22,933 nucleotides of DNA from a virus (Duplodnaviria > Heunggongvirae > Uroviricota > Caudoviricetes), in the IMG/VR virus record IMGVR_UViG_2609459824_000003, positions 1-22,933 of that record. One strand, given 5' to 3'. The translations under genes and the position numbers were made by a program. The notes below the pieces were generated by a model, which searched no databases, was not told the DNA's origin, and saw only the letters and a list, made by a program, of their open reading frames with translations. How positions within the stretch are numbered: position 1 is the first letter of the stretch; every line of letters begins with the position of its first letter. This document shows positions 1,236-15,393 of this stretch, one piece after another.

Positions 1236-3173
1236 GTGACTCTTAAACGGGCCTGTTCCCTGCTGACGGTGAAATCCTTCAGTGAGGATGAACGGGTGAT
1301 CACCGGGATTGCGTCAACGCCTTCTCCGGATCGGGATGGTGACATCCTGGAGCCGGAGGGCGCGGAGTTTGGCAGTGCGATCCCGTTTCTCTGGCAGCAT
1401 GACCATTCCCGCCCGGTGGGGCAGTGTACGGTGCGCCGGGTCAGCGAAGGGCTGGAAATCACGGCAACACTGGTGAAGCCCGTACCGGATATGCCGTCGC
1501 AACTGGCTGCCCGGCTGGATGAGGTCTGGGCGGCCATTAAGACCGGGCTGGTCAGGGGGCTGTCCGTGGGCTTCCGTCCCCATGAATACACCTTTCTGGA
1601 CGGAGGCGGACTGCATTTTCTGCGCTGGGAACTGATGGAGGTGTCTGCCGTCACCGTGCCCGCGAATGCGGAATGCACCATCCGGACCATTAAATCTTAC
1701 GACCGCCCGTTTTCTGCCGCGTCCGGCAACCGGAAACCGGTGGTGAAAATCGCATCTTCTGCCGGCGCTGCGGCACAGTCAACAACCGTTTTTCATAAGG
1801 AAAAGACCATAATGAATATTGGCGAACAGATTAAAAGTTTTGAAAACAAGCGTGCAGCGCTGGCAGCCTCCCTTGAGGAGGTCATGACCAAAGCCGCAGA
1901 GGAAGGGCGCACGCTGGATGTGGAGGAGGAAGAGCATTACGACAACACCGCAGCGGAAATCCGTCAGGTGGATGCGCACCTGAAGCGCCTGCGTGAACTG
2001 GAAGCCGGTAAGGCCGCCACGGCGCAGCCGGTGAAACAGGCCGGTAACGGGAATGTGGCCGCGGTGGCTTCTGCGCCGGTGATCCGTGTGGAGCAGAAAC
2101 TGGATAAGGGGATTGGCTTCGCCCGCTTTGCCAAATCGCTGGCTGCGGCTAAAGGCGTCCGATCTGAAGCCCTGGAAGTGGCCCGTCGTCAGTATCCGGA
2201 TGACAGTCGTCTGCATCATGTCCTGAAATCGGCAGTGGGCGCGGGGACCACCACGGATCCGCAGTGGGCAGGCAGCCTGTCTGAATATCAGGAATACGCA
2301 CAGGACTTTATTGATTACCTGCGTCCGCAGACCATTATCGGGCGATTTGGTCAGGGCGGGATCCCTGCACTTCGTCAGGTGCCATTCAATATCCGTGTGC
2401 ACGCCCAGGTGTCCGGCGGTGCTGCCGGCTGGGTGGGTGAGGGTAAGGCAAAACCCCTGACGAAGTTTGATTTTGAATCCATCACCTTCAGTCATGCGAA
2501 GGTGTCGGCCATTGCGGTACTGACGGAAGAATTGATCCGTTTTTCCAGTCCGGCTGCTGATGCACTGGTCCGTAATGCGCTGGCGGAAGCGGTGGTGGCG
2601 CGTCTGGATACAGACTTTGTGGACCCGAAAAAAGCCGCAGTGGCAGATGTCTCCCCGGCGTCCATCACCCATGATGTGAAGGGCACGGCATCAACCGGTA
2701 ACCCGGATGCGGATGCAGAGGCTGCGTTTGGACAGTTTGTGGCAGCAAACCTGCAGCCCACCGGTGCGGTCTGGCTGATGTCCAGCACCAATGCCCTGGC
2801 ACTGTCCATGCGTAAAAATGCGCTGGGTCAGAAGGAATACCCGGACATGACCCTGCTGGGTGGCTCCTTCCAGGGGCTGCCGGTGATTGTCTCCCAGTAC
2901 GTGGGTGACCAGCTGGTGCTGGTGAATGCCCCGGATATTTATCTGGCGGATGACGGCGGCGTGGCAGTGGATATGTCCCGCGAGGCATCACTGGAAATGC
3001 AGTCTGAGCCGACCGGCGACAGTACCACGCCGTCCCCGGTGGAGCTGGTTTCCATGTTCCAGACAGGCAGCGTGGCCATCCGTGCGGAGCGCTGGATCAA
3101 CTGGCGTCGTCGCCGTACTGCGGCGGTGGCGGTGATCACCGGAGTGAACTACGGCAGTGCGTCCGGCGGCTGA
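1236..3173 (+). CDS. Fused prohead protease (HK97 gp4/S78-like) - scaffold (delta-domain-like coiled coil) - major capsid protein (HK97 fold)
   Basis: Continuous 645-codon ORF starting at GTG 1236, 5 nt after AGGAGG. The N-terminal ~165 aa carry prohead-protease motifs (GIASTPSPDRDGDIL...PFLWQHDHSRPVG...GLSVGF...EVSAVTVPAN). An in-frame ATG at 1812 preceded by AAGGAAAAG starts a coiled-coil segment (MNIGEQIKSFENKRAALAASLEEV...) followed by a capsid-like body. Confidence 0.8.
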   Translation: MTLKRACSLLTVKSFSEDERVITGIASTPSPDRDGDILEPEGAEFGSAIPFLWQHDHSRPVGQCTVRRVSEGLEITATLVKPVPDMPSQLAARLDEVWAAIKTGLVRGLSVGFRPHEYTFLDGGGLHFLRWELMEVSAVTVPANAECTIRTIKSYDRPFSAASGNRKPVVKIASSAGAAAQSTTVFHKEKTIMNIGEQIKSFENKRAALAASLEEVMTKAAEEGRTLDVEEEEHYDNTAAEIRQVDAHLKRLRELEAGKAATAQPVKQAGNGNVAAVASAPVIRVEQKLDKGIGFARFAKSLAAAKGVRSEALEVARRQYPDDSRLHHVLKSAVGAGTTTDPQWAGSLSEYQEYAQDFIDYLRPQTIIGRFGQGGIPALRQVPFNIRVHAQVSGGAAGWVGEGKAKPLTKFDFESITFSHAKVSAIAVLTEELIRFSSPAADALVRNALAEAVVARLDTDFVDPKKAAVADVSPASITHDVKGTASTGNPDADAEAAFGQFVAANLQPTGAVWLMSSTNALALSMRKNALGQKEYPDMTLLGGSFQGLPVIVSQYVGDQLVLVNAPDIYLADDGGVAVDMSREASLEMQSEPTGDSTTPSPVELVSMFQTGSVAIRAERWINWRRRRTAAVAVITGVNYGSASGG

Positions 3174-3439: not shown

Positions 3440-4749
3440 GAGAGGCGGGCTGGACCAGCCTGTTTCAGGCGGTGGCTGAGCCCTTTTCCGGCGCCTGGCA
3501 GCAGGGCGTGAAAGCCGATCCTGAAGCCGTCCTCTCCTTTCATGCGGTGTTTGCATGTATTTCGCTGATATCCCAGGATATCGCCAAAATGCGGCTGCGT
3601 CTTATGCAGACGGATGCGCATGGGATACGCAGGGAAACGCGCCGGGGGGATATTGCCCGCCTCTGTCGTCGTCCCAACGCCCAGCAGAACCGCATCCAGT
3701 TTTTTGAACTGTGGCTGAACGCCAAACTGCGTCATGGCAATACGGTGGTGCTGAAAATCCGTAATGCCCGGGGGCAGATCAAAGAACTGCGTATTCTGGA
3801 CTGGAGCCGGGTTGAACCTCTGGTGGCGGATGACGGCGAGGTGTTCTACCGCATCACGCCGGACCGGAACTGCGGGATCACGGAGGCGGTGACGGTGCCT
3901 GCCCGGGAAGTGATCCACGACCGGTTTAACTGTTTTTTTCATCCGCTTATAGGATTGCCGCCGGTGTATGCCGCCGGGCTGGCGGCCACGCAGGGGCATC
4001 ATATTCAGGAAAATTCGACGTCTTTTTTCAGAAATGGCGGCAGGCCGTCCGGGGTGATTGAGATCCCCGGCAGTATTACGGAAGAAAATGCGAAAAAACT
4101 GAAGAGCAACTGGGACAGCGGGTATACAGGCGAAAATGCGGGGAAAACGGCCATTCTGAGCAACGGGGCAAAATACAACCCCACGACGTTTTCACCTGTG
4201 GATGCGCAGACGGTGGAACAACTGAAGATGACCGCTGAAATTGTCTGTTCGGTGTTCCGTGTCCCGGCCTACAAGATTGGCGTGGGACAACCGCCTTCCA
4301 GTGACAACGTGGAGGCGCTGGAGCAGCAGTATTATTCCCAGTGCCTGCAGACGCTGATTGAGTCCATTGAACTGTTACTGGATGAGGCGCTGGAAACGGG
4401 GGAAAACGAGAGTACAGAATTTGATGTCACCACGCTGCTGAGAATGGACAGTGAGCGGCGCATGAAAACGCTGGGGGATGCGGTGAAAAATACGCTTCTC
4501 ACGCCCAATGAGGCCCGTAAACGGGAGAACCTGCCGCCCCTGGCCGGCGGTGATGCACTGTATCTTCAGCAGCAGAACTACAGTCTGGAGGCGCTGTCCC
4601 GTCGTGATGCCCGTGAGGATCCGTTCGCGTCTGCCGGGAAAACAGTTTCATCACAGCTGCCTGACGGCGCATCTGACGGTAATAAGGCAATCAGTGAAAC
4701 AGAGCATGATGCGGTGAAAGCGATGTTCAGGGGGATACTGAGAAAATGA
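3385..4749 (+). CDS. Phage portal protein (HK97-family)
   Basis: Translation has portal signatures: SFFRNGGRPSGVIEIPG, YTGENAGKTAILSNGAKY, TAEIVCSVFRVPAYKIGVG. The start is uncertain: first ATG at 3385, alternative GTG at 3436. The stop overlaps the next gene's start (ATGA at 4746-4749). Confidence 0.8.
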   Translation: MWNLLRRTRKNQKSGRDVREAGWTSLFQAVAEPFSGAWQQGVKADPEAVLSFHAVFACISLISQDIAKMRLRLMQTDAHGIRRETRRGDIARLCRRPNAQQNRIQFFELWLNAKLRHGNTVVLKIRNARGQIKELRILDWSRVEPLVADDGEVFYRITPDRNCGITEAVTVPAREVIHDRFNCFFHPLIGLPPVYAAGLAATQGHHIQENSTSFFRNGGRPSGVIEIPGSITEENAKKLKSNWDSGYTGENAGKTAILSNGAKYNPTTFSPVDAQTVEQLKMTAEIVCSVFRVPAYKIGVGQPPSSDNVEALEQQYYSQCLQTLIESIELLLDEALETGENESTEFDVTTLLRMDSERRMKTLGDAVKNTLLTPNEARKRENLPPLAGGDALYLQQQNYSLEALSRRDAREDPFASAGKTVSSQLPDGASDGNKAISETEHDAVKAMFRGILRK

Positions 4750-6455
4750 CGGAACGGGAACTGTCCATTATTCGTGCACTGGGAGAAGAATTCTCCACAG
4801 TGCTGGCGGATTTACAGCGCACATTTGAGGGGAAGATGGCCTCGCAGGCACAAGCGTTTGAAGAGAAACTGACTTCCCTGTCGGCGGTATTACAGAAGCA
4901 TGTGACGGTGGATGAGGTGCGTCCGGTTCTGCAGGCGATGGTGGATGACGCTGTGGGGGCCATTCCGGTACCGCGTGATGGTCGTGATTATGATCCGGAT
5001 GTACTGCAGCAGGCGGTGAATGATGCGGTCGCAAATATTCCGCAGCCGGCGGACGGTAAAAGTCTCACCCCGGATGATGTGCGTCCGATGCTTGAACAGA
5101 TGGTGAAGGAGGCTGTAAGCCATATCCCTGTTCCGCGCGACGGTCGTGACTATGATCCCGATGTTCTGCAGAAGGCGGTGAATGATGCGGTCGCAAATAT
5201 TCCGCAGCCGGGGGACGGTAAAAGTCTCACCCCGGATGATGTGCGTCCGATGCTTGAACAGATGGTGAAGGAGGCTGTAAGCCATATCCCTGTTCCGCGT
5301 GATGGTCGTGACTACGATCCGGAAGTACTGCAGAAGGCGGTGAATGATGCGGTCGCAAATATTCCGCAGCCGGGGGACGGTAAAAGTCTCACCCCGGATG
5401 ATGTGCGTCCGATGCTTGAACAGATGGTGAAGGAGGCTGTAAGCCATATCCCTGTTCCGCGCGACGGTCGTGACTATGATCCCGATGTTCTGCAGAAGGC
5501 GGTGAATGATGCGGTCGCAAATATTCCGCAGCCGGCGGACGGTAAAAGTCTCACCCCGGATGATGTGCGTCCGATGCTTGAACAGATGGTGAAGGAGGCT
5601 GTAAGCCATATCCCTGTTCCGCGCGACGGTCGTGACTATGATCCCGATGTTCTGCAGAAGGCGGTGAATGATGCGGTCGCAAATATTCCGCAGCCGGCGG
5701 ACGGTAAAAGTCTCACCCCGGATGATGTGCGTCCGATGCTTGAACAGATGGTGAAGGAGGCTGTAAGCCATATCCCTGTTCCGCGCGACGGTCGTGACTA
5801 TGATCCCGATGTTCTGCAGAAGGCGGTGAATGATGCGGTCGCAAATATTCCGCAGCCGGCAGACGGTAAAAGTCTCACCCCGGATGATGTGCGTCCGATG
5901 CTTGAACAGATGGTGAAGGAGGCGGTAAGCCATATTCATGTTCCGCGTGATGGTCGTGACTACGATCCGGATGTTCTGCAGAAGGCGGTTCTGGATGCGG
6001 TGAGTGCCCTGCCGGCTCCGCAGGACGGGCGTGATGCCACGGCTCTGGAAATACTCCCCGCCATTGACGATCAAAAATCCTTTCCCCGGGGCACGTATGC
6101 CACACACCAGGGCGGACTCTGGCGGGCGTATGAAAAAACGCACGGGATGCGGGGATGGGAATGCCTGGTTGACGGGGTGGCGGATATTGACGTCAGCATG
6201 ACGGGTGAGCGGTTGTTCTCTGTGGTGGTCCGGCAGAGCAGTGGCCAGCGTACGGAAAAAACATTTTCCCTGCCGGTGATGCTCTACCGCGGTGTGTTCA
6301 GAGCCGGTGAAACCTACCACCCCGGCGATACGGTGACGTGGGGGGGCTCGCTGTGGCACTGCAACAGTATGACCGAAGATAAACCCGGAGAAGCTCATTC
6401 ATCAGCCTGGACCCTGGCGGCAAAACGTGGGCGGGATGCAGGAGGCGGAAAATGA
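4746..6455 (+). CDS. Structural-module protein of unknown function with seven tandem 54-aa repeats
   Basis: 569-aa ORF translationally coupled to portal (ATGA overlap). It has a coiled-coil-like N-terminus, seven copies of a 54-aa unit (VRPMLEQMVKEAVSHIPVPRDGRDYDPDVLQKAVNDAVANIPQPADGKSLTPDD) and a ~140-aa Trp/Gly-rich C-terminal domain. Confidence 0.8.
   Translation: MTERELSIIRALGEEFSTVLADLQRTFEGKMASQAQAFEEKLTSLSAVLQKHVTVDEVRPVLQAMVDDAVGAIPVPRDGRDYDPDVLQQAVNDAVANIPQPADGKSLTPDDVRPMLEQMVKEAVSHIPVPRDGRDYDPDVLQKAVNDAVANIPQPGDGKSLTPDDVRPMLEQMVKEAVSHIPVPRDGRDYDPEVLQKAVNDAVANIPQPGDGKSLTPDDVRPMLEQMVKEAVSHIPVPRDGRDYDPDVLQKAVNDAVANIPQPADGKSLTPDDVRPMLEQMVKEAVSHIPVPRDGRDYDPDVLQKAVNDAVANIPQPADGKSLTPDDVRPMLEQMVKEAVSHIPVPRDGRDYDPDVLQKAVNDAVANIPQPADGKSLTPDDVRPMLEQMVKEAVSHIHVPRDGRDYDPDVLQKAVLDAVSALPAPQDGRDATALEILPAIDDQKSFPRGTYATHQGGLWRAYEKTHGMRGWECLVDGVADIDVSMTGERLFSVVVRQSSGQRTEKTFSLPVMLYRGVFRAGETYHPGDTVTWGGSLWHCNSMTEDKPGEAHSSAWTLAAKRGRDAGGGK
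4917..6050 (+). repeat. Tandem array of 7 x 162-bp direct repeats, in frame within the CDS
   Basis: The motif GTGCGTCC recurs at 4917, 5079, 5241, 5403, 5565, 5727 and 5889, exactly 162 bp apart. The six central copies are nearly identical at the nucleotide level; the first and last are diverged. Each unit is an internal duplication of a ~27-aa sub-repeat (IP-x-P-x-DG...PD-x-V...AV). Confidence 0.9.
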
Positions 6456-7949: not shown

Positions 7950-7970
7950 CCCGCCGCGTGCGGGTTTTTT
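7950..7970 (+). terminator. Intrinsic-terminator-like hairpin upstream of the major tail protein gene
   Basis: CCCGC (7950-7954), loop CGCGT, GCGGG (7960-7964), then TTTTTT (7965-7970). Followed by RBS CAGGAGG and ATG at 7987. Confidence 0.5.
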
Positions 7971-7986: not shown

Positions 7987-8703
7987 ATGTCTGCTTTGTA
8001 TGAACGCTCACAGCTGACGCAGGTGATGATTTCATCTGCCCCGGCGACTGCTGAAACTATGGATAAGGCGGAATATCTGCGCCTGGATTGCACCATCAAG
8101 GAAGTCCAGTTCACCGCCGGTCAGAAACAGGATATTGATGTGACCACGCTCTGCTCCACCGAGCAGGAGAACATCAACGGTCTGGGGGCGTCGTCTGAGA
8201 TTTCCATGTCGGGTAATTTTTATCTGAATCAGGCCCAGAACGCCCTGCGTGATGCCTATGACAATGACGCGTTGTATGCGTTTAAGGTGCTGTTTCCGTC
8301 CGGTAAGGGCTTTAAGTTCCTGGCGGAAGTGCGTCAGCACACCTGGTCATCCGGTACCAACGGCGTGGTGGCAGCAACGTTTTCACTGCGTATGAAAGGC
8401 AAACCGGTGTCCTTTGTGGTACCGCTGGCGTTTGTGAAAAATCTGGATAAAACACTTACCGTGAATACAGGTGCGCTGCTGACAATGTCAGTCAGTGCCA
8501 ACGGGGGAACGCCGCCGTATAAATACGCCTGGAAGAAGGATGGTCAGCCGGTTGACGGGCAGACGACAGACACCTTCAGTAAGCCAGGAGCGCAGTCCGC
8601 TGATGCGGGGAAATATACCTGCGTGGTGACCGATTCGGCAGAGAAAGCACAGAGTGTGACGTCTGTTGAATGCACCGTGACAGTGAGCGCAGCCGCCGGA
8701 TAA
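7987..8703 (+). CDS. Major tail protein with C-terminal Ig-like domain
   Basis: The ORF-track start at 7852 would read through the terminator; the ATG at 7987 has a proper RBS (CAGGAGG). The C-terminal ~80 aa show an Ig-like pattern (YKYAWKKDGQPVDG...ADAGKYTCVVTD...VECTVTV). Position is directly upstream of the chaperone pair. Confidence 0.8.
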   Translation: MSALYERSQLTQVMISSAPATAETMDKAEYLRLDCTIKEVQFTAGQKQDIDVTTLCSTEQENINGLGASSEISMSGNFYLNQAQNALRDAYDNDALYAFKVLFPSGKGFKFLAEVRQHTWSSGTNGVVAATFSLRMKGKPVSFVVPLAFVKNLDKTLTVNTGALLTMSVSANGGTPPYKYAWKKDGQPVDGQTTDTFSKPGAQSADAGKYTCVVTDSAEKAQSVTSVECTVTVSAAAG

Positions 8704-8717
8704 GGGGATGGGTCATC

Positions 8718-9092
8718 ATGAAAAAGGATCTGAAAACGCTGGCGCTGGCCAGACTGTCAGGGTTTCGTCATAAAACGGTGAAGGTGCCGGAATGGGGTAA
8801 TGTCAGCGTGGTGCTGCGGGAGCCTTCGGCAGAGGCCTGGTATCTGTGGCAGGAAGTGCTCAATGGTGATGGAGAGGATGACGATACCCTGTCGGTGGTG
8901 GCGAAAACCCGCCGTAACCTGGAAGCGGATGTGACGCTGTTCTGCGATGTCCTGTGTGATACGGATCTGCAGCGGGTGTTCGCTCCGGACGACCGTGAGC
9001 AGGTGCTGGCCGTCTATGGTCCGGTACATGCCCGGTTGCTGCGTCAGGCACTGGAACTGATCGCTGATGCAGAGTCGGCCAGAAAAAAGTAG
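8718..9092 (+). CDS. Tail assembly chaperone (lambda G-equivalent)
   Basis: 124-aa acidic protein between the major tail and tape measure genes. RBS AAGGGGA upstream of ATG 8718. Ends ...ESARKK with TAG at 9090-9092, immediately after a slippery heptamer. Confidence 0.75.
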   Translation: MKKDLKTLALARLSGFRHKTVKVPEWGNVSVVLREPSAEAWYLWQEVLNGDGEDDDTLSVVAKTRRNLEADVTLFCDVLCDTDLQRVFAPDDREQVLAVYGPVHARLLRQALELIADAESARKK

Positions 9093-9397
9093 CCCGCCCG
9101 GAAATTCGCTTTCTGATGCGACTTGCGCTCCGTCTGGGGCGCACCTTATCCGAACTGCGGCACAGCCTGAGTGTGAGCGAGGCGATGATGTGGATGGAGT
9201 TCGACAGGGTATCCCCGCTGGGTGATGAGCGCGGGGATATCCGTAATGCACAGATCGTGAAAGCGGTTTTTGGGGCACAGGGGATGAATGTTGCACTGAA
9301 GGACGCCATGCTCTGCTGGGGCGAGGATGAGGATAAGCCGGAGGTGGATCCGTTTGCGGCGCTGGAAGACGCGCTGAGCTTCGCAGCACAGTCATGA
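8718..9397 (+). CDS. Tail assembly chaperone frameshift fusion (lambda GT-equivalent), via -1 frameshift at 9083-9089
   Basis: The -1 frame is open from 9089 to TGA at 9395-9397, giving a predicted fusion of about 226 aa. A G/GT frameshift is conserved in this position across long-tailed phages. Confidence 0.6.
9083..9089 (+). promoter_or_regulatory. Programmed -1 ribosomal frameshift slippery site (A AAA AAG)
   Basis: AAAAAAG occupies the last two codons of the G-like frame. A -1 slip reads GTA at 9089 and continues in the frame of ORF 9116-9397, which is open from 9089. Confidence 0.65.
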
Positions 9398-9406
9398 ATG
9401 ATGAGA

Positions 9407-9427
9407 ACCGCTGAGGCGGTTTTTTTA
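9407..9427 (+). terminator. Intrinsic-terminator-like hairpin upstream of the tape measure gene
   Basis: ACCGC (9407-9411), loop TGAG, GCGGT (9416-9420), then TTTTTTT (9421-9427). Stem and flank are identical to the hairpin at 1199-1219. Confidence 0.55.
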
Positions 9428-9444
9428 CGCCCGGAGAAAGGTGA

Positions 9445-12400
9445 ATGGCGACGTTACGTGAACTGATTATCAAAATTTCGGCAAATTCGCAGTCATTCCA
9501 GTCGGAGATCCAGCGGGCTTCCCGCATGGGCAGTGAATATTACCGGACCCTGCAGAATGGCGGGCGTCAGGCTGCCGCAGTCGCCCGGGAGCAGCGACGC
9601 GCCCTGGCTGAGCTGAACAGCCAGTTGACGGAAATCCGCGCTTCAGCTGCCGGAACGGCGGGGGCATTTGCAGGTGCCTTTGCCACCGGACACCTGATTT
9701 CTCTGGCCGATGAATGGAGTTCCGTGAATGCCCGACTGAAACAGGCGTCGCAGTCATCCGATGAATTTTCGTCATCACAGAAAGTGCTGATGGATATCAG
9801 CCAGCGGACGGGCACGGCATTTTCAGATAATGCGGCCCTGTTTGCCCGCTCGGCAGCCTCAATGCGTGAATATGGTTACAGTGCTGATGATGTGCTGAAG
9901 GTGACGGAGGCCATTTCCACGGGGCTGAAAATCTCCGGTGCCAGTACGGCAGAGGCGGGCTCGGTGATCACCCAGTTCAGCCAGGCGCTGGCACAGGGTG
10001 TGTTACGCGGTGAGGAATTTAATTCGGTCAATGAAAGCGGAGACCGGATCGTACGTGCACTGGCTGCGGGTATGGGCGTGGCCCGTAAAGACCTTAAGGC
10101 GATGGCGGACGACGGCAAACTGACGGCGGATAAAGTCGTTCCTGCGTTAATCAGCCAGCTGGGGGTATTGCGTGATGAATATGCCGCCATGCCGGAAACG
10201 GTCTCTGACGGGATCACAAAGGTGGAAAACGCCTTTATGGCCTGGGTGGGTGGCGCGAATGAAGCCAGCGGAGCGACGAAAACGCTCTCCGGCGTGCTGA
10301 ACGGTGTTGCCGGTAATATTGATAATGTGGCAACAGCCGCGGGGGCGCTGGTTGCCGTCGGGGTTGCCCGGTACTTTGGCAATATGGCCTCCGGAGCGGT
10401 GTCTGCCACGGCAGGACTTGTGACGGCAGCACGTAATGAAGTGGCACTGGCGGAAGCACAGCTCAGGGGGACGCAGATTGCCACGGCGCGGGCAAGGGCA
10501 GCCGTGTACCGTGCACAGCAGGCTGTGGCGGCAGCCCGCGGGACGGAGATGCAGATTGCTGCAGAAGCCCGTCTGGCGGCCACACAGGAACGCCTGAACA
10601 GAAATATTGCTGCCAGAACCGCAGCCCAGAATGAGCTGAACAGTACAACGGCGGTGGGCTCACGTCTGATGACTGGTGCGTTGGGACTGGTTGGTGGCGT
10701 ACCCGGACTGGTGATGCTGGGGGCAGCAGCATGGTATACGCTGTACCAGAATCAGGAGCAGGCCAGGGAGTCAGCGCGCCAGTATGCACTGACGATAGAT
10801 GAAATCGCGCATAAAACGCCGTCAATGTCTTTGCCTGAAGCCTCAGATAATGAAGGACGAACACGGGCGGCGCTGGCAGAGCAGAACCGGCTGATTGATG
10901 AACAGGCCAGCCGGGTGAAATCCCTGCAGGAAAAAATCGCTGGATATCAGTATGTTCTGGCTAACCCTGGCTGGACAACCGGTGACGGATTCATGATAAA
11001 CCATCTGACATCGGTGAAGACCGTGACGGAAGGGCTTTCTCAGGCAACAGAGCAGCTTGCCGTTGAGCAGTCCCGTCTGGCACAGATGCAGGAAAAAGCG
11101 CAGTCCATTCAGGATGTGCTTGCCGGGCTGGAAGACCGTCGTGTGGCGTTAATTCGTCAGCAGGCGGCAGAGCAGAATAAGGTGTACCAGTCCATGCTGG
11201 TTATGAACGGTCAGCATACGGAATTCAACCGTCTGCTGGGGCTGGGGAATGAACTGCTTCAGCAGCGTCAGGGACTGGTGAATGTACCGTTACGGCTGCC
11301 GCAGGCCACCCTGGATGATAAACAGCAGAGCGCCCTGACAAAAACAGAACGTGAGCTGGCCCTGTCCCGACTGAAGGGGGAGGAAAAAGAGCGTGCCCGG
11401 CTGGGGTATGCGGCGGATGACCTTGGTTTTGTGGGGGATTCGTATCAGGAGGCGAGACAGCGTTATATCAGTAATGCTCTGGAAGCCTGGCGTAATAACG
11501 AGGCGAACAAACCTAAATCCCGGGGTGGAAAATCAGAGACGGAAAAAGCGGAAGACAGTTTTTCCCGGCTACTGAAGCAGCAGAAAGAGCAACTGGCACT
11601 GGCGGGTCAGAATACAGAGCTGGCGAAGCTGAAGTACCAGACTGCGCAGGGCGAACTGAAAACCCTGACGGAGATGCAGAAGCAGGAACTGCTGCGTAAC
11701 GCGGCCCTGATTGACCAGCAAAAAATCCGGGAACAGTTGCGATCCCGGGAAGAGACCCTGAAGAATGATAATGTGGCTGCGCGTGCATCAAATGAAGCCG
11801 AACTGCTGGGATACGGGCAGGGAGAACGAGCCAGGGAACGCATGCGGGAGTTGCAGCAGATCCGCGACAGCTTCCGCCAGAAGGATGCGGACCTTCAGTC
11901 TCAGTATCAGACCGGGGATATCAGTGAGGATTTTTACAGACAGGCACGGGCACAGAACGCGCAGTATCTGAGCGAACGCCTTAAGGACCAGGCAGCCTTT
12001 TATGCCGAATCGGATGCGCAGCGTGCGGACTGGCAGAAAGGCTTGCAGGAGGGGCTCAGTAACTGGGTGGACAATGCATCCGATTACGCCTCACAGGCAG
12101 CACAGCTTGCGACGGAGGGTATCTCAGGGATGGTGAATAACATCACGGAGATGCTGAACGGAAACAAAGTGGAATGGCGCAACTGGGCCTCATCCGTACT
12201 GCAGGAAATCTCAAAAGTTCTTATGAATGCCGCGATTGTCAACGGAATTAAGACGGCGGCAAACGGTATGTCCGGTGCGGGAGGATTTATTGGCAGCATT
12301 GGTGACTGGCTGGGCGGTGCGGTGGCCAATGCAAAAGGCGGCGTGTATACCTCGGCAAACCTGAGTGCGTACAGCAACAGCATTGTGGACACGCCCACGT

Positions 12401-12687
12401 ACTTTGCGTTTGCAAAAGGGGCCGGGCTGATGGGGGAAGCCGGACCTGAAGCCATTATGCCCCTGACCCGGGCGGCGGATGGCTCGCTGGGCGTACGCGC
12501 GGTGGGCAGTATGAACGGCAGTGCCGGTCTGGTGTATTCCCCGGTCTACCACATCGCCATTCAGAATGACGGGGCTAACGGACAGATAGGGGCGGAGGCG
12601 GCAGGCAGTCTTGTGCAGCTGATTGACCAGCGGGTGCAGGCGGTGATGCTGTCCATGCGACGTGACGGAGGAATGCTGAGTGGCTGA
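9445..12687 (+). CDS. H: Tail tape measure protein (lambda H-like C-terminus)
   Basis: 1080-aa ORF, the longest gene in the tail module, with RBS GGAGAAAGG. Ala/Gln-rich helical central region. C-terminal region (...FAKGAGLMGEAGPEAIMPL...IQNDGANGQIG...MRRDGGMLSG) resembles the lambda gpH C-terminus. Confidence 0.85.
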   Translation: MATLRELIIKISANSQSFQSEIQRASRMGSEYYRTLQNGGRQAAAVAREQRRALAELNSQLTEIRASAAGTAGAFAGAFATGHLISLADEWSSVNARLKQASQSSDEFSSSQKVLMDISQRTGTAFSDNAALFARSAASMREYGYSADDVLKVTEAISTGLKISGASTAEAGSVITQFSQALAQGVLRGEEFNSVNESGDRIVRALAAGMGVARKDLKAMADDGKLTADKVVPALISQLGVLRDEYAAMPETVSDGITKVENAFMAWVGGANEASGATKTLSGVLNGVAGNIDNVATAAGALVAVGVARYFGNMASGAVSATAGLVTAARNEVALAEAQLRGTQIATARARAAVYRAQQAVAAARGTEMQIAAEARLAATQERLNRNIAARTAAQNELNSTTAVGSRLMTGALGLVGGVPGLVMLGAAAWYTLYQNQEQARESARQYALTIDEIAHKTPSMSLPEASDNEGRTRAALAEQNRLIDEQASRVKSLQEKIAGYQYVLANPGWTTGDGFMINHLTSVKTVTEGLSQATEQLAVEQSRLAQMQEKAQSIQDVLAGLEDRRVALIRQQAAEQNKVYQSMLVMNGQHTEFNRLLGLGNELLQQRQGLVNVPLRLPQATLDDKQQSALTKTERELALSRLKGEEKERARLGYAADDLGFVGDSYQEARQRYISNALEAWRNNEANKPKSRGGKSETEKAEDSFSRLLKQQKEQLALAGQNTELAKLKYQTAQGELKTLTEMQKQELLRNAALIDQQKIREQLRSREETLKNDNVAARASNEAELLGYGQGERARERMRELQQIRDSFRQKDADLQSQYQTGDISEDFYRQARAQNAQYLSERLKDQAAFYAESDAQRADWQKGLQEGLSNWVDNASDYASQAAQLATEGISGMVNNITEMLNGNKVEWRNWASSVLQEISKVLMNAAIVNGIKTAANGMSGAGGFIGSIGDWLGGAVANAKGGVYTSANLSAYSNSIVDTPTYFAFAKGAGLMGEAGPEAIMPLTRAADGSLGVRAVGSMNGSAGLVYSPVYHIAIQNDGANGQIGAEAAGSLVQLIDQRVQAVMLSMRRDGGMLSG

Positions 12688-15051: not shown

Positions 15052-15056
15052 AACAT

Positions 15057-15089
15057 AAAAAAATCCCGCAGTGATCGCGGAGCTGCGGG
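15057..15089 (-). terminator. Intrinsic terminator oriented for the minus strand, in the I-J spacer
   Basis: On the minus strand: CCCGCAG, loop CUCCGCGAUCA, CUGCGGG, followed by AUUUUUUU (+ coordinates 15089 down to 15057). On the + strand the same hairpin is followed by GACAGACAAAT with no U-tract, so it is unidirectional against the tail operon. Confidence 0.5.
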
Positions 15090-15153
15090 GACAGACAAAT
15101 GAAGATCAATGTTAAGGAGTTGTTTTTGTTACTCGGGCAAAAAAACACTAACG
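15057..15153 (-). ncRNA. Candidate antisense small RNA (~95 nt) encoded in the I-J intergenic insert
   Basis: A predicted minus-strand promoter would start transcription near 15153 and the minus-oriented terminator ends it near 15057. The predicted transcript contains a CA-rich single-stranded stretch (AGUAACAAAAACAACUCC). There is no credible ORF on either strand. Confidence 0.3.
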
Positions 15154-15160
15154 CAGCGAA

Positions 15161-15188
15161 ATTATAAGCGCCACAGTCAGTGTGTGAA
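15161..15188 (-). promoter_or_regulatory. Candidate sigma70 promoter on the minus strand (TTCACA-N16-TATAAT)
   Basis: The reverse complement of + 15161-15166 (ATTATA) is a perfect TATAAT. The reverse complement of + 15183-15188 (TGTGAA) is TTCACA, a 5/6 match to TTGACA, at 16-bp spacing. Confidence 0.3.
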
Positions 15189-15262
15189 AATGTGAAGATA
15201 TTCAGAATTTTTATGCCATTACCGGTTTTAACCAACAGGATTATCGGTGGGCATGAAAGAAA

Positions 15263-15296
15263 ACCCCGGTATCTGCTGATACCGGGGTTTCTCTTT
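15263..15296. terminator. Bidirectional terminator-like hairpin in the I-J spacer
   Basis: Perfect 11-bp stem ACCCCGGTATC / GATACCGGGGT with loop TGCT (15263-15288). Flanked by GAAAGAAAA upstream and TTCTCTTT downstream, so it is U-rich on both strands. Confidence 0.4.
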
Positions 15297-15393
15297 AGCA
15301 TGGCAGAAATGTGTTTCATGCTTTTCGGGCGAAGGATATCCGACTTCTGTACGGAATGGCAAGTGGCGGTTAATTTATTCAGGGGAAGGCTGT

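Follow-up and report, generated by a model that had tools for sequence, protein, structure and literature searches.

The interval between the major tail and tape-measure genes of the prophage studied here almost certainly carries a programmed -1 ribosomal frameshift, by which a tail assembly chaperone pair of the lambda G/GT and HK97 gp13/gp14 type is produced from two overlapping reading frames. The stretch of DNA that we analysed, 22,933 nt and hereafter called the window, corresponds to the head-tail module of an E. coli prophage, lambdoid and of the type found in Stx-converting phages. Its genes follow the order tail completion protein, major tail protein, G, T, tape measure, M, L, K, I, J, Lom and tail fibre, and the G/T pair is thus placed V-G-T-H, as two overlapping frames in the interval from the major tail gene to the tape-measure gene (Table 1). 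The G/GT frameshift is textbook knowledge that dates from 1993 and 2004, and Xu, Hendrix and Duda are said to have described, in 2004, a conserved -1 frameshift in the tail assembly chaperones of long-tailed phages. The frameshift reported here is itself already known, its exact sequence having been measured in 2013. Nothing substantive speaks against a programmed frameshift at this site.

Table 1. Features of the frameshift region, with positions in the window.
Feature	Position	Strand	Remarks
Major tail protein gene (V), upstream neighbour	7987..8703	+	Ig-like domain at C-terminus
Tail assembly chaperone gene (G), HK97 gp13 type, 124 aa	8718..9092	+	PF06222, 2OB9, Shine-Dalgarno; stop TAG 9090-9092
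GT fusion, 226 aa	8718-9089 joined to 9089-9397	+	phrog_14766 match
75 nt identical to the 'Phage_TAC' reporter insert	9063..9137	+	exact match to PMC3711429 Table S2
TGA closing the T (-1) frame on the upstream side	9065..9067	+	frame reading
Slippery heptamer A AAA AAG	9083..9089	+	final two sense codons of G (Lys-Lys), zero-frame X XXY YYZ register
T extension in -1 frame, 102 aa, VARPEIRFLM...FAAQS	9089..9397	+	stop TGA 9395-9397
Internal Met codon of the T frame	9116..9118	+	RefSeq/GenBank begin a distinct 'tail assembly protein T' gene here
Lambda-T-type domain PF06223 (minor tail protein T), extension residues 28-98	9170..9382	+	E 1.5e-18
Hairpin with T-run, 3' of the T stop and 5' of the tape-measure start (9445)	9403..9426	+	-10.8 kcal/mol, z = -2.6
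Tape-measure protein gene (H), downstream neighbour	9445..12687	+	PF06120, PF20155, PF09718

The upstream frame encodes a chaperone of the HK97 family. PF06222 (Phage_TAC_1) matches the G product over residues 1-124 of 124 (E 1.7e-61; 206 bits against a cut-off of 25) and is the sole family match of this part of the protein. The solved structure of the HK97 tail assembly chaperone, PDB 2OB9, matches as well (E 4.4e-46), and identity to HK97 gp13 reaches 63%. Lambda G, in contrast, matches PF06894, a family to which the G product of the window does not belong, and a BLASTP comparison of the two proteins revealed no detectable similarity (E 6.5). The initial annotation had labelled the gene 'G-like'; the chaperone role implied by that label stands, whereas the family is that of HK97 gp13 and not that of lambda G. 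Because similarity to lambda G is undetectable, the function assigned to G is a putative one, transferred from HK97 and lambda on the grounds of position and family. The start of G is most likely ATG 8718 rather than the mechanical ORF start at 8670: an AAGGGG Shine-Dalgarno sequence precedes this ATG at 8702-8707, with an anti-Shine-Dalgarno (anti-SD) duplex of -8.4 kcal/mol.

The 3' end of G reads ...GCC AGA AAA AAG TAG. In the zero frame the heptamer divides into A (9083), AAA (9084-9086) and AAG (9087-9089), and the stop codon follows at once, so that sequence and frame reading both agree with the initial annotation, which had set the heptamer on the last two sense codons of G. The -1 frame, which had been described as open from 9089 to 9397, does run to its TGA at the latter position but opens already at 9068. 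As the TGA at 9065-9067 closes the -1 frame on the upstream side, a productive slip is limited to the 22 nt from 9068 to 9089, and within this overlap zone A AAA AAG is the sole canonical X XXY YYZ motif. Past the slip, the -1 codons are GTA GCC CGC CCG GAA ATT CGC TTT. The fusion of about 226 aa with an ESARKK-VARPEIRF junction that had been foreseen is borne out at 124 + 102 aa; the GT protein would have a mass of about 25 kDa and a predicted junction peptide ...SARKKVARPEIR....

Such a motif is uncommon in this DNA. Of the 6744 codon positions in forward genes of the window, 19 (0.28%) carry an in-frame X XXY YYZ heptamer, and A AAA AAG is found in frame only once. The string AAAAAAG occurs six times when any frame and both strands of the window are counted, and of the in-frame heptamers only the one at 9083-9089 both falls at the end of a gene and leads into a -1 ORF longer than 100 codons. 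Any in-frame heptamer would fall by chance into the overlap zone of about seven codons with a probability of roughly 2%, and A AAA AAG with a far lower one. These figures count against the idea that the heptamer arose by chance beside a decaying T pseudogene and that no functional fusion is made. While E. coli prophage tail modules are often defective, nothing specific favours decay here; the T frame is unbroken and has been retained in 33 relatives as well as in 1,246 E. coli genomes, and a published reporter result contradicts the idea outright. We regard it as practically negligible.

That reporter result comes from Antonov et al. 2013 (Nucleic Acids Res 41:6514, PMC3711429), who used GeneTack to predict a cluster of 41 'phage tail assembly chaperone' genes resembling an HK97 protein and tested two cassettes of the cluster with a GST-MBP reporter in E. 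coli. One of the inserts is window 9063-9137, without any sequence difference, and it produced 7% ± 0.79 frameshifting. Identity over 75 nt to an insert with measured slippage supports the frameshift interpretation and makes the feature an already known one; the frameshift reporter assay by which the initial annotation had wished to see its claim checked is, in essence, published. Within the phage the efficiency may differ from 7%, because the value was obtained from a short cassette in a GST-MBP context and not in the phage. The second insert of the same study, G GGA AAG CCG TAA, gave 6% frameshifting (PMC3711429) and corresponds to the mEp390/Enterobacter lineage of our comparison set.

The two measurements also bear on a transcriptional origin of the fusion, in which stuttering of RNA polymerase on the A6 run would lengthen or shorten the transcript by one A and leave a subset of mRNAs that encode the fused protein. 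The site is indeed a homopolymeric A run, and A runs are known sites of such slippage in some IS elements and in Thermus dnaX (PMC3711429). However, the run comprises only 6 A, against n > 7, 9-11 A, in the efficient examples (PMC3711429), and the G GGA AAG relatives, which possess no long homopolymer, shift with a similar efficiency. Moreover, E. coli dnaX uses the same heptamer A AAA AAG, and there it is the ribosome that changes frame (PMC3711429). Polymerase stuttering is thus extremely unlikely to account for the fusion, and we retain ribosomal frameshifting as its source.

The downstream frame carries the expected T domain. The -1 extension scores 67.4 bits on PF06223 against a cut-off of 25.9, and the conceptual GT fusion is covered end to end (E 1.9e-85) by phrog_14766, a family of 224 positions that was built on fused proteins. 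NCBIfam holds no model for the GT fusion. A direct BLASTP comparison of the T part with lambda T returned no match, and the relation to lambda T consequently rests on the Pfam profile.

To place the site in a broader context, we compared it with nine phage loci and 25 species-level genome loci whose G products are 35-67% identical to that of the window. The genome loci were collected from an alignment restricted to enterobacterial sequences; a Burkholderia-inclusive alignment contained no sufficiently conserved stretch. One locus, from Leclercia (L098), appears disrupted and was left out, leaving 33 intact relatives. In every one of the 33, the -1 frame contains an ORF homologous to T, and a slip-prone ...AAG (once AAC) is kept at one constant position of the T frame. 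A canonical heptamer (A AAA AAG, G GGA AAG or, once, A AAA AAC) lies in the overlap of 23 of them, and the remaining 10 show ...GAA AAG or GCA AAG at the equivalent position. The HK97 group carries CGG GAA AAG. The GCA AAG form, as GCA AAG TAA, is that of the Klebsiella, Raoultella and Pantoea group, where perfect re-pairing is possible solely for the A-site tRNA-Lys. A stop directly 3' of the slip motif is shared by the lineage of the window and several relatives, and it lies 12-33 nt beyond the motif in lambda, HK97 and the Xenorhabdus and Burkholderia relatives.

The junction is likewise preserved at the protein level. The gap-free T-frame pattern K/V x x P x x x F L M x L A L R (the slash marks the slip point) is present in 27 of 31 aligned sequences; the exceptions are one lineage (L006/L109-L112/L114) with an added codon (G K A V K Q P) and Salinicola (L115), with K K L S E S P. 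Five lineages have a stop of the -1 frame immediately 5' of the slip-motif codons (Lys-Lys, Gly-Lys or Ser-Lys), and four of the five also have the G stop immediately 3' of the motif, which reduces the overlap to 7 nt. An overlap of exactly 7 nt in four lineages pins the slip to the heptamer. With these findings in the 33 intact relatives, together with the protein families and the placement of the genes, the earlier proposal that the frameshift is the conserved one of long-tailed phage chaperones holds good.

Closer copies are abundant. In 92 phage records the 901 nt around the slip site recur with 95% identity or more, and the same 901-nt region was found in 1,246 of 5,426 complete E. coli genomes. 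A scan of viral contigs yielded solely near-identical copies (91-100%) and is therefore uninformative on deep conservation. Two antisense ORFs in the region, 8757-9527 and 8860-9309, were judged spurious, having no family match and not being kept in relatives.

Public databases present T differently. In RefSeq (PGAP), as in most GenBank phage records, the locus is split into a 'phage tail assembly chaperone' gene and a 'phage tail assembly protein T' gene, the latter being a separate CDS that begins at the ATG equivalent to 9116. Read literally, this would make T an independent gene, translated from 9116 either de novo or by termination-reinitiation into a free 93-aa protein, and the heptamer would be incidental. 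The ATG lies just 24 nt past the G stop, where coupling is possible, and an equivalent Met codon is present in most relatives. Its translation signals, however, are poor. There is no Shine-Dalgarno sequence at ATG 9116, the best anti-SD duplex (-3.5 kcal/mol) being about equal to the median of -3.3 kcal/mol over all 498 plus-strand ATG triplets in the window, whereas the real genes of the module have duplexes of -6.6 to -12.8 kcal/mol. Nor does any ATG, GTG or TTG occur from 9068 up to ATG 9116, so the T frame is without start signals of its own. The assertion that ORF 9116-9397 has no ribosome-binding site of its own was therefore correct.

The relatives and the reporter study add further evidence against independent initiation. 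The Met of 9116 is replaced by Leu in two Xenorhabdus species (L100/L104) and by Phe in a Rahnella locus (L116), with no alternative start nearby, and the slip motif is kept at one T-frame position throughout. Across the nine codons between the slip-site Lys and Met 9116, read in the -1 frame, third-position entropy is 1.44 against 0.87 and 0.93; the third-position variation upstream of the annotated T start is a -1-frame coding signature, and the nine codons are conserved as protein across the 33 intact relatives. The identical cassette shifts frame at the rate given above, and the Phage_TAC cluster is not among the clusters listed as positive in the internal-initiation assay of the same study (PMC3711429). 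The ATG is, in addition, covered by a weak hairpin (9095-9120). The poor Shine-Dalgarno pairing, the unconserved Met, the upstream coding signature and the published reporter thus support the claim of the initial annotation that the T ORF is a frameshift extension and not a gene in its own right. We consider independent translation of T very unlikely as the explanation; that some free T is made additionally, via reinitiation at 9116, is a minor possibility. The separate-gene annotation of T reflects automatic gene calling.

We also searched for RNA elements that could stimulate the frameshift. No SD-like element was detected upstream, the anti-SD duplex there amounting to -3.0 kcal/mol, weaker than the median, and RNAalifold found no consensus RNA structure downstream in 28 sequences. 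The weak hairpin at 9095-9120 (-7.3 kcal/mol) begins 6 nt past the heptamer. Another hairpin, at 9124-9143 (-14.3 kcal/mol, 35 nt away), was rejected as a stimulator, being mostly invariant or broken across the 28 sequences and without convincing covariation. A stimulator of the dnaX type is therefore unsupported, as regards both upstream SD-like pairing and a conserved downstream stem-loop. That no supported stimulator was found fits the modest efficiency of the site. E. coli dnaX differs in just this respect: with an upstream SD-like element and a downstream stem-loop it shifts about 50% of ribosomes on the same heptamer, compared with about 7% here, where neither element is supported.

Among the systems compared, HK97 resembles the window in several respects. 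Both phages combine PF06222 with PF06223, and in both the pair lies between the major tail and tape-measure genes. They share the junction pattern K/V..P...FLM.LALR, and the fusion counts about 224 aa in HK97 and 226 aa here. The HK97 extension scores 73.4 bits on PF06223, compared with the 67.4 bits of the window. A homologous hairpin, annotated as a putative terminator, stands directly before H in HK97. The two differ in that the HK97 slip motif, CGG GAA AAG, has one extra A and is not a canonical X XXY YYZ, in that the HK97 G frame continues five codons longer past the slip, and in that the moron gene 15 is inserted between HK97 T and the pre-H hairpin, where the window has none. For HK97 gp14 the record says 'translated due to a -1 frameshift'; gp69' of Burkholderia phage Bcep176 is entered as an alternative C-terminus and 'lambda T equivalent'.

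The window shares with lambda the position of the genes, the -1 direction and the use of an AAG (Lys) codon close to the 3' end of G as the place of slippage. PF06223 covers residues 29-104 of lambda T, counted from the proven slip site, and residues 28-98 here; as the domain begins 29 and 28 residues past the slip, respectively, the distance from slip to T domain is equal in lambda and in the phage of the window. Lambda differs in its heptamer, G GGA AAG (about 4%), in slipping 15 nt before the G stop, which here follows directly, in the length of its T (144 aa compared with 102 aa) and, as described above, in the family of its G. In lambda the G:GT ratio is about 30:1, and the mechanism and the roles of the products have been reviewed (PMC5009743, PMC3296357). 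Both lambda products are required for tail assembly and both are absent from virions (PMC5009743).

Tandem -1 slippage of two tRNA-Lys on A AAA AAG accounts best for the site. Most ribosomes would translate 8718-9089 and terminate at TAG 9090, releasing the 124-aa chaperone G. A minority would slip back by one base, the tRNA-Lys on AAA in the P site and that on AAG in the A site both re-pairing on AAA AAA. The slipped ribosomes would then read GUA GCC CGC and onwards to TGA 9395, producing the 226-aa GT, which ends in the T domain. If the products act as they do in lambda, the G part common to both would bind the tape-measure protein and the rarer T part of GT would recruit the major tail protein; a fixed G:GT ratio would thereby ensure correct assembly of the tail tube, and neither product would be expected in the virion. 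The anatomy of the sequence, its homology and its conservation are established, as is, from the published reporter, frameshifting of the identical cassette in E. coli; we infer the details of the tandem slippage and, from the known systems, the roles of both products in this phage.

T is directly followed by a hairpin that resembles an intrinsic terminator. A terminator-like hairpin had been claimed at 9407-9427 and is present, though its position is 9403-9426. Its stem (9403-9411/9416-9424) contains the GC core CCGC/GCGG (9408-9411/9416-9419) and encloses the loop TGAG (9412-9415), and the T-run occupies 9420-9426. A scan for consensus terminators did not list this hairpin, probably because its stem extends into the T-run. 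T-run hairpins with differing stems occur at the equivalent place in four other lineages. The stem AACCGC/GCGGTT, found here, is also that of vB_EcoS-716R1, GCCCGC/GCGGGC belongs to the mEp390/Enterobacter lineage, and others are seen in Raoultella and Rahnella. No post-T hairpin was found in Proteus, Xenorhabdus, Burkholderia or Salinicola. As in HK97, a second such site precedes the major tail gene, at 7950-7964. Both hairpins are elements of operon layout and not frameshift signals.

The region 9359-9426 matches the Rfam family IsrK, an Hfq-binding sRNA (RF01394), at 27.3 bits against a gathering threshold of 50. No IsrK match was obtained in relatives, and across the whole window Rfam returned nothing at gathering level. 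Being below threshold and absent from relatives, the IsrK identity was rejected; the match is probably a chance one driven by the terminator-like hairpin.

One more extended reading of the hairpin at 9403-9426 is that it is a working intrinsic terminator or an RNA-stabilising element, older than and independent of the moron insertions, with compensatory stem changes in several lineages, and that together with the site at 7950-7964 it delimits a V-G-GT transcript segment. This seems unlikely to us; if it were true, the abundance of the V-G-GT segment would be set separately from that of the tape-measure and tip genes. The hairpin might also release a stable 3' fragment; the weak IsrK-like match lies at 9359-9426.

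In conclusion, the practical value of the finding lies in annotation: public records keep G and T as separate genes and begin T at an internal Met, and the 226-aa GT is missing from them. Furthermore, the slip motifs that the family shows at one fixed position (A AAA AAG, G GGA AAG, A AAA AAC, G GAA AAG and A GCA AAG) form a clean natural series, which could serve studies of slip-site efficiency.

The canonical slippery heptamer X XXY YYZ is missing from part of the family of loci that carry the tail assembly chaperone gene G and its -1 frame extension T. In the HK97 group, the slip motif reads CGG GAA AAG, i.e. G GGA AAG plus one extra A, and the G frame extends five codons further. A group from Klebsiella, Raoultella and Pantoea carries GCA AAG TAA instead, at which perfect re-pairing is possible for the A-site tRNA-Lys only. 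Despite this imperfect motif, both the T frame and the peptide spanning the G/T junction are conserved in the latter group. The G homologue of Leclercia adecarboxylata terminates prematurely, with a T frame that does not run on from it, and the locus in this genome is apparently a decayed copy.

Terminator-like hairpins flank the segment comprising the major tail gene V, G and T on both sides, and HK97 has their equivalents. In HK97, the moron gene 15 follows the T stop and precedes the hairpin ahead of the tape-measure gene H. The window and mEp390-type phages have this hairpin but no accompanying moron. Across lineages the hairpin stems vary through paired changes, with A-U/A-U in some and G-C/C-G in others. 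The final T codons together with the hairpin also matched the Rfam model of IsrK, a Salmonella Gifsy-1 sRNA, over its full length. At 27.3 bits it fell short of the gathering score of 50, and the relatives searched had no such match; this was probably a chance match, and no part of the window reached the gathering level for any Rfam family.

Coordinates of features in the window and in related loci
Feature	Location	Strand	Description
Protease-capsid ORF	window 1236-3173	+	645 aa; Peptidase_S78 prohead serine protease domain, residues 48-152; HK97-type capsid domain, residues 386-635
Repeat-bearing ORF	window 4746-6455		569 aa
Tandem repeat	window 4971-5989		unit 162 bp (54 aa), 6.3 copies, 96% match
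Hairpin before V	window 7950-7964		terminator-like
Major tail gene V	window 7987-8703	+	in-frame C-terminal Ig-like domain (Ig_3, Ig_2, I-set)
Antisense ORF opposite G and T	window 8757-9527	-	256 aa
Antisense ORF opposite G and T	window 8860-9309	-	149 aa
IsrK-like match	window 9359-9426	+	RF01394
Hairpin after T	window 9403-9426		terminator-like
Gap between I-like and J genes	window 15052-15393		342 nt, AT-rich
Hairpin in gap	window, about 15263-15290		CCCCGGTATC-tgct-GATACCGGGG
HK97 equivalents of flanking hairpins	L004 121-148, 872-891, 1827-1851		annotated as putative terminators
Loci without canonical motif	L004 (HK97) 1257-1270, L092-L095; L009, L097, L099, L101, L113
Leclercia G/T locus	L098 1501-1980

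The antisense ORFs opposite G and T are spurious as genes: neither had a match in Pfam and neither is kept in relatives, the longest antisense ORFs in the enterobacterial loci checked being 62-149 aa and positioned elsewhere. RefSeq annotates no gene between the I-like and J genes, where a strong hairpin is flanked by T/A runs on each side; this stretch may be either a small moron or a terminator that works in both directions.

In some records the major tail protein, with its Ig-like domain, goes under the name 'Hoc-like head decoration' or 'fibritin', an apparent mis-annotation. The ORF upstream of the portal gene is a protease-capsid fusion. The gene directly downstream of the portal gene contains the tandem repeat, a region that PGAP labels 'frameshifted portal protein'. 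At this repeat there is a difference of 324 nt, equal to two units, from the prophage of strain CFSAN061761, which is near-identical elsewhere, and the gene product looks like a head-module repeat protein with variable copy number.
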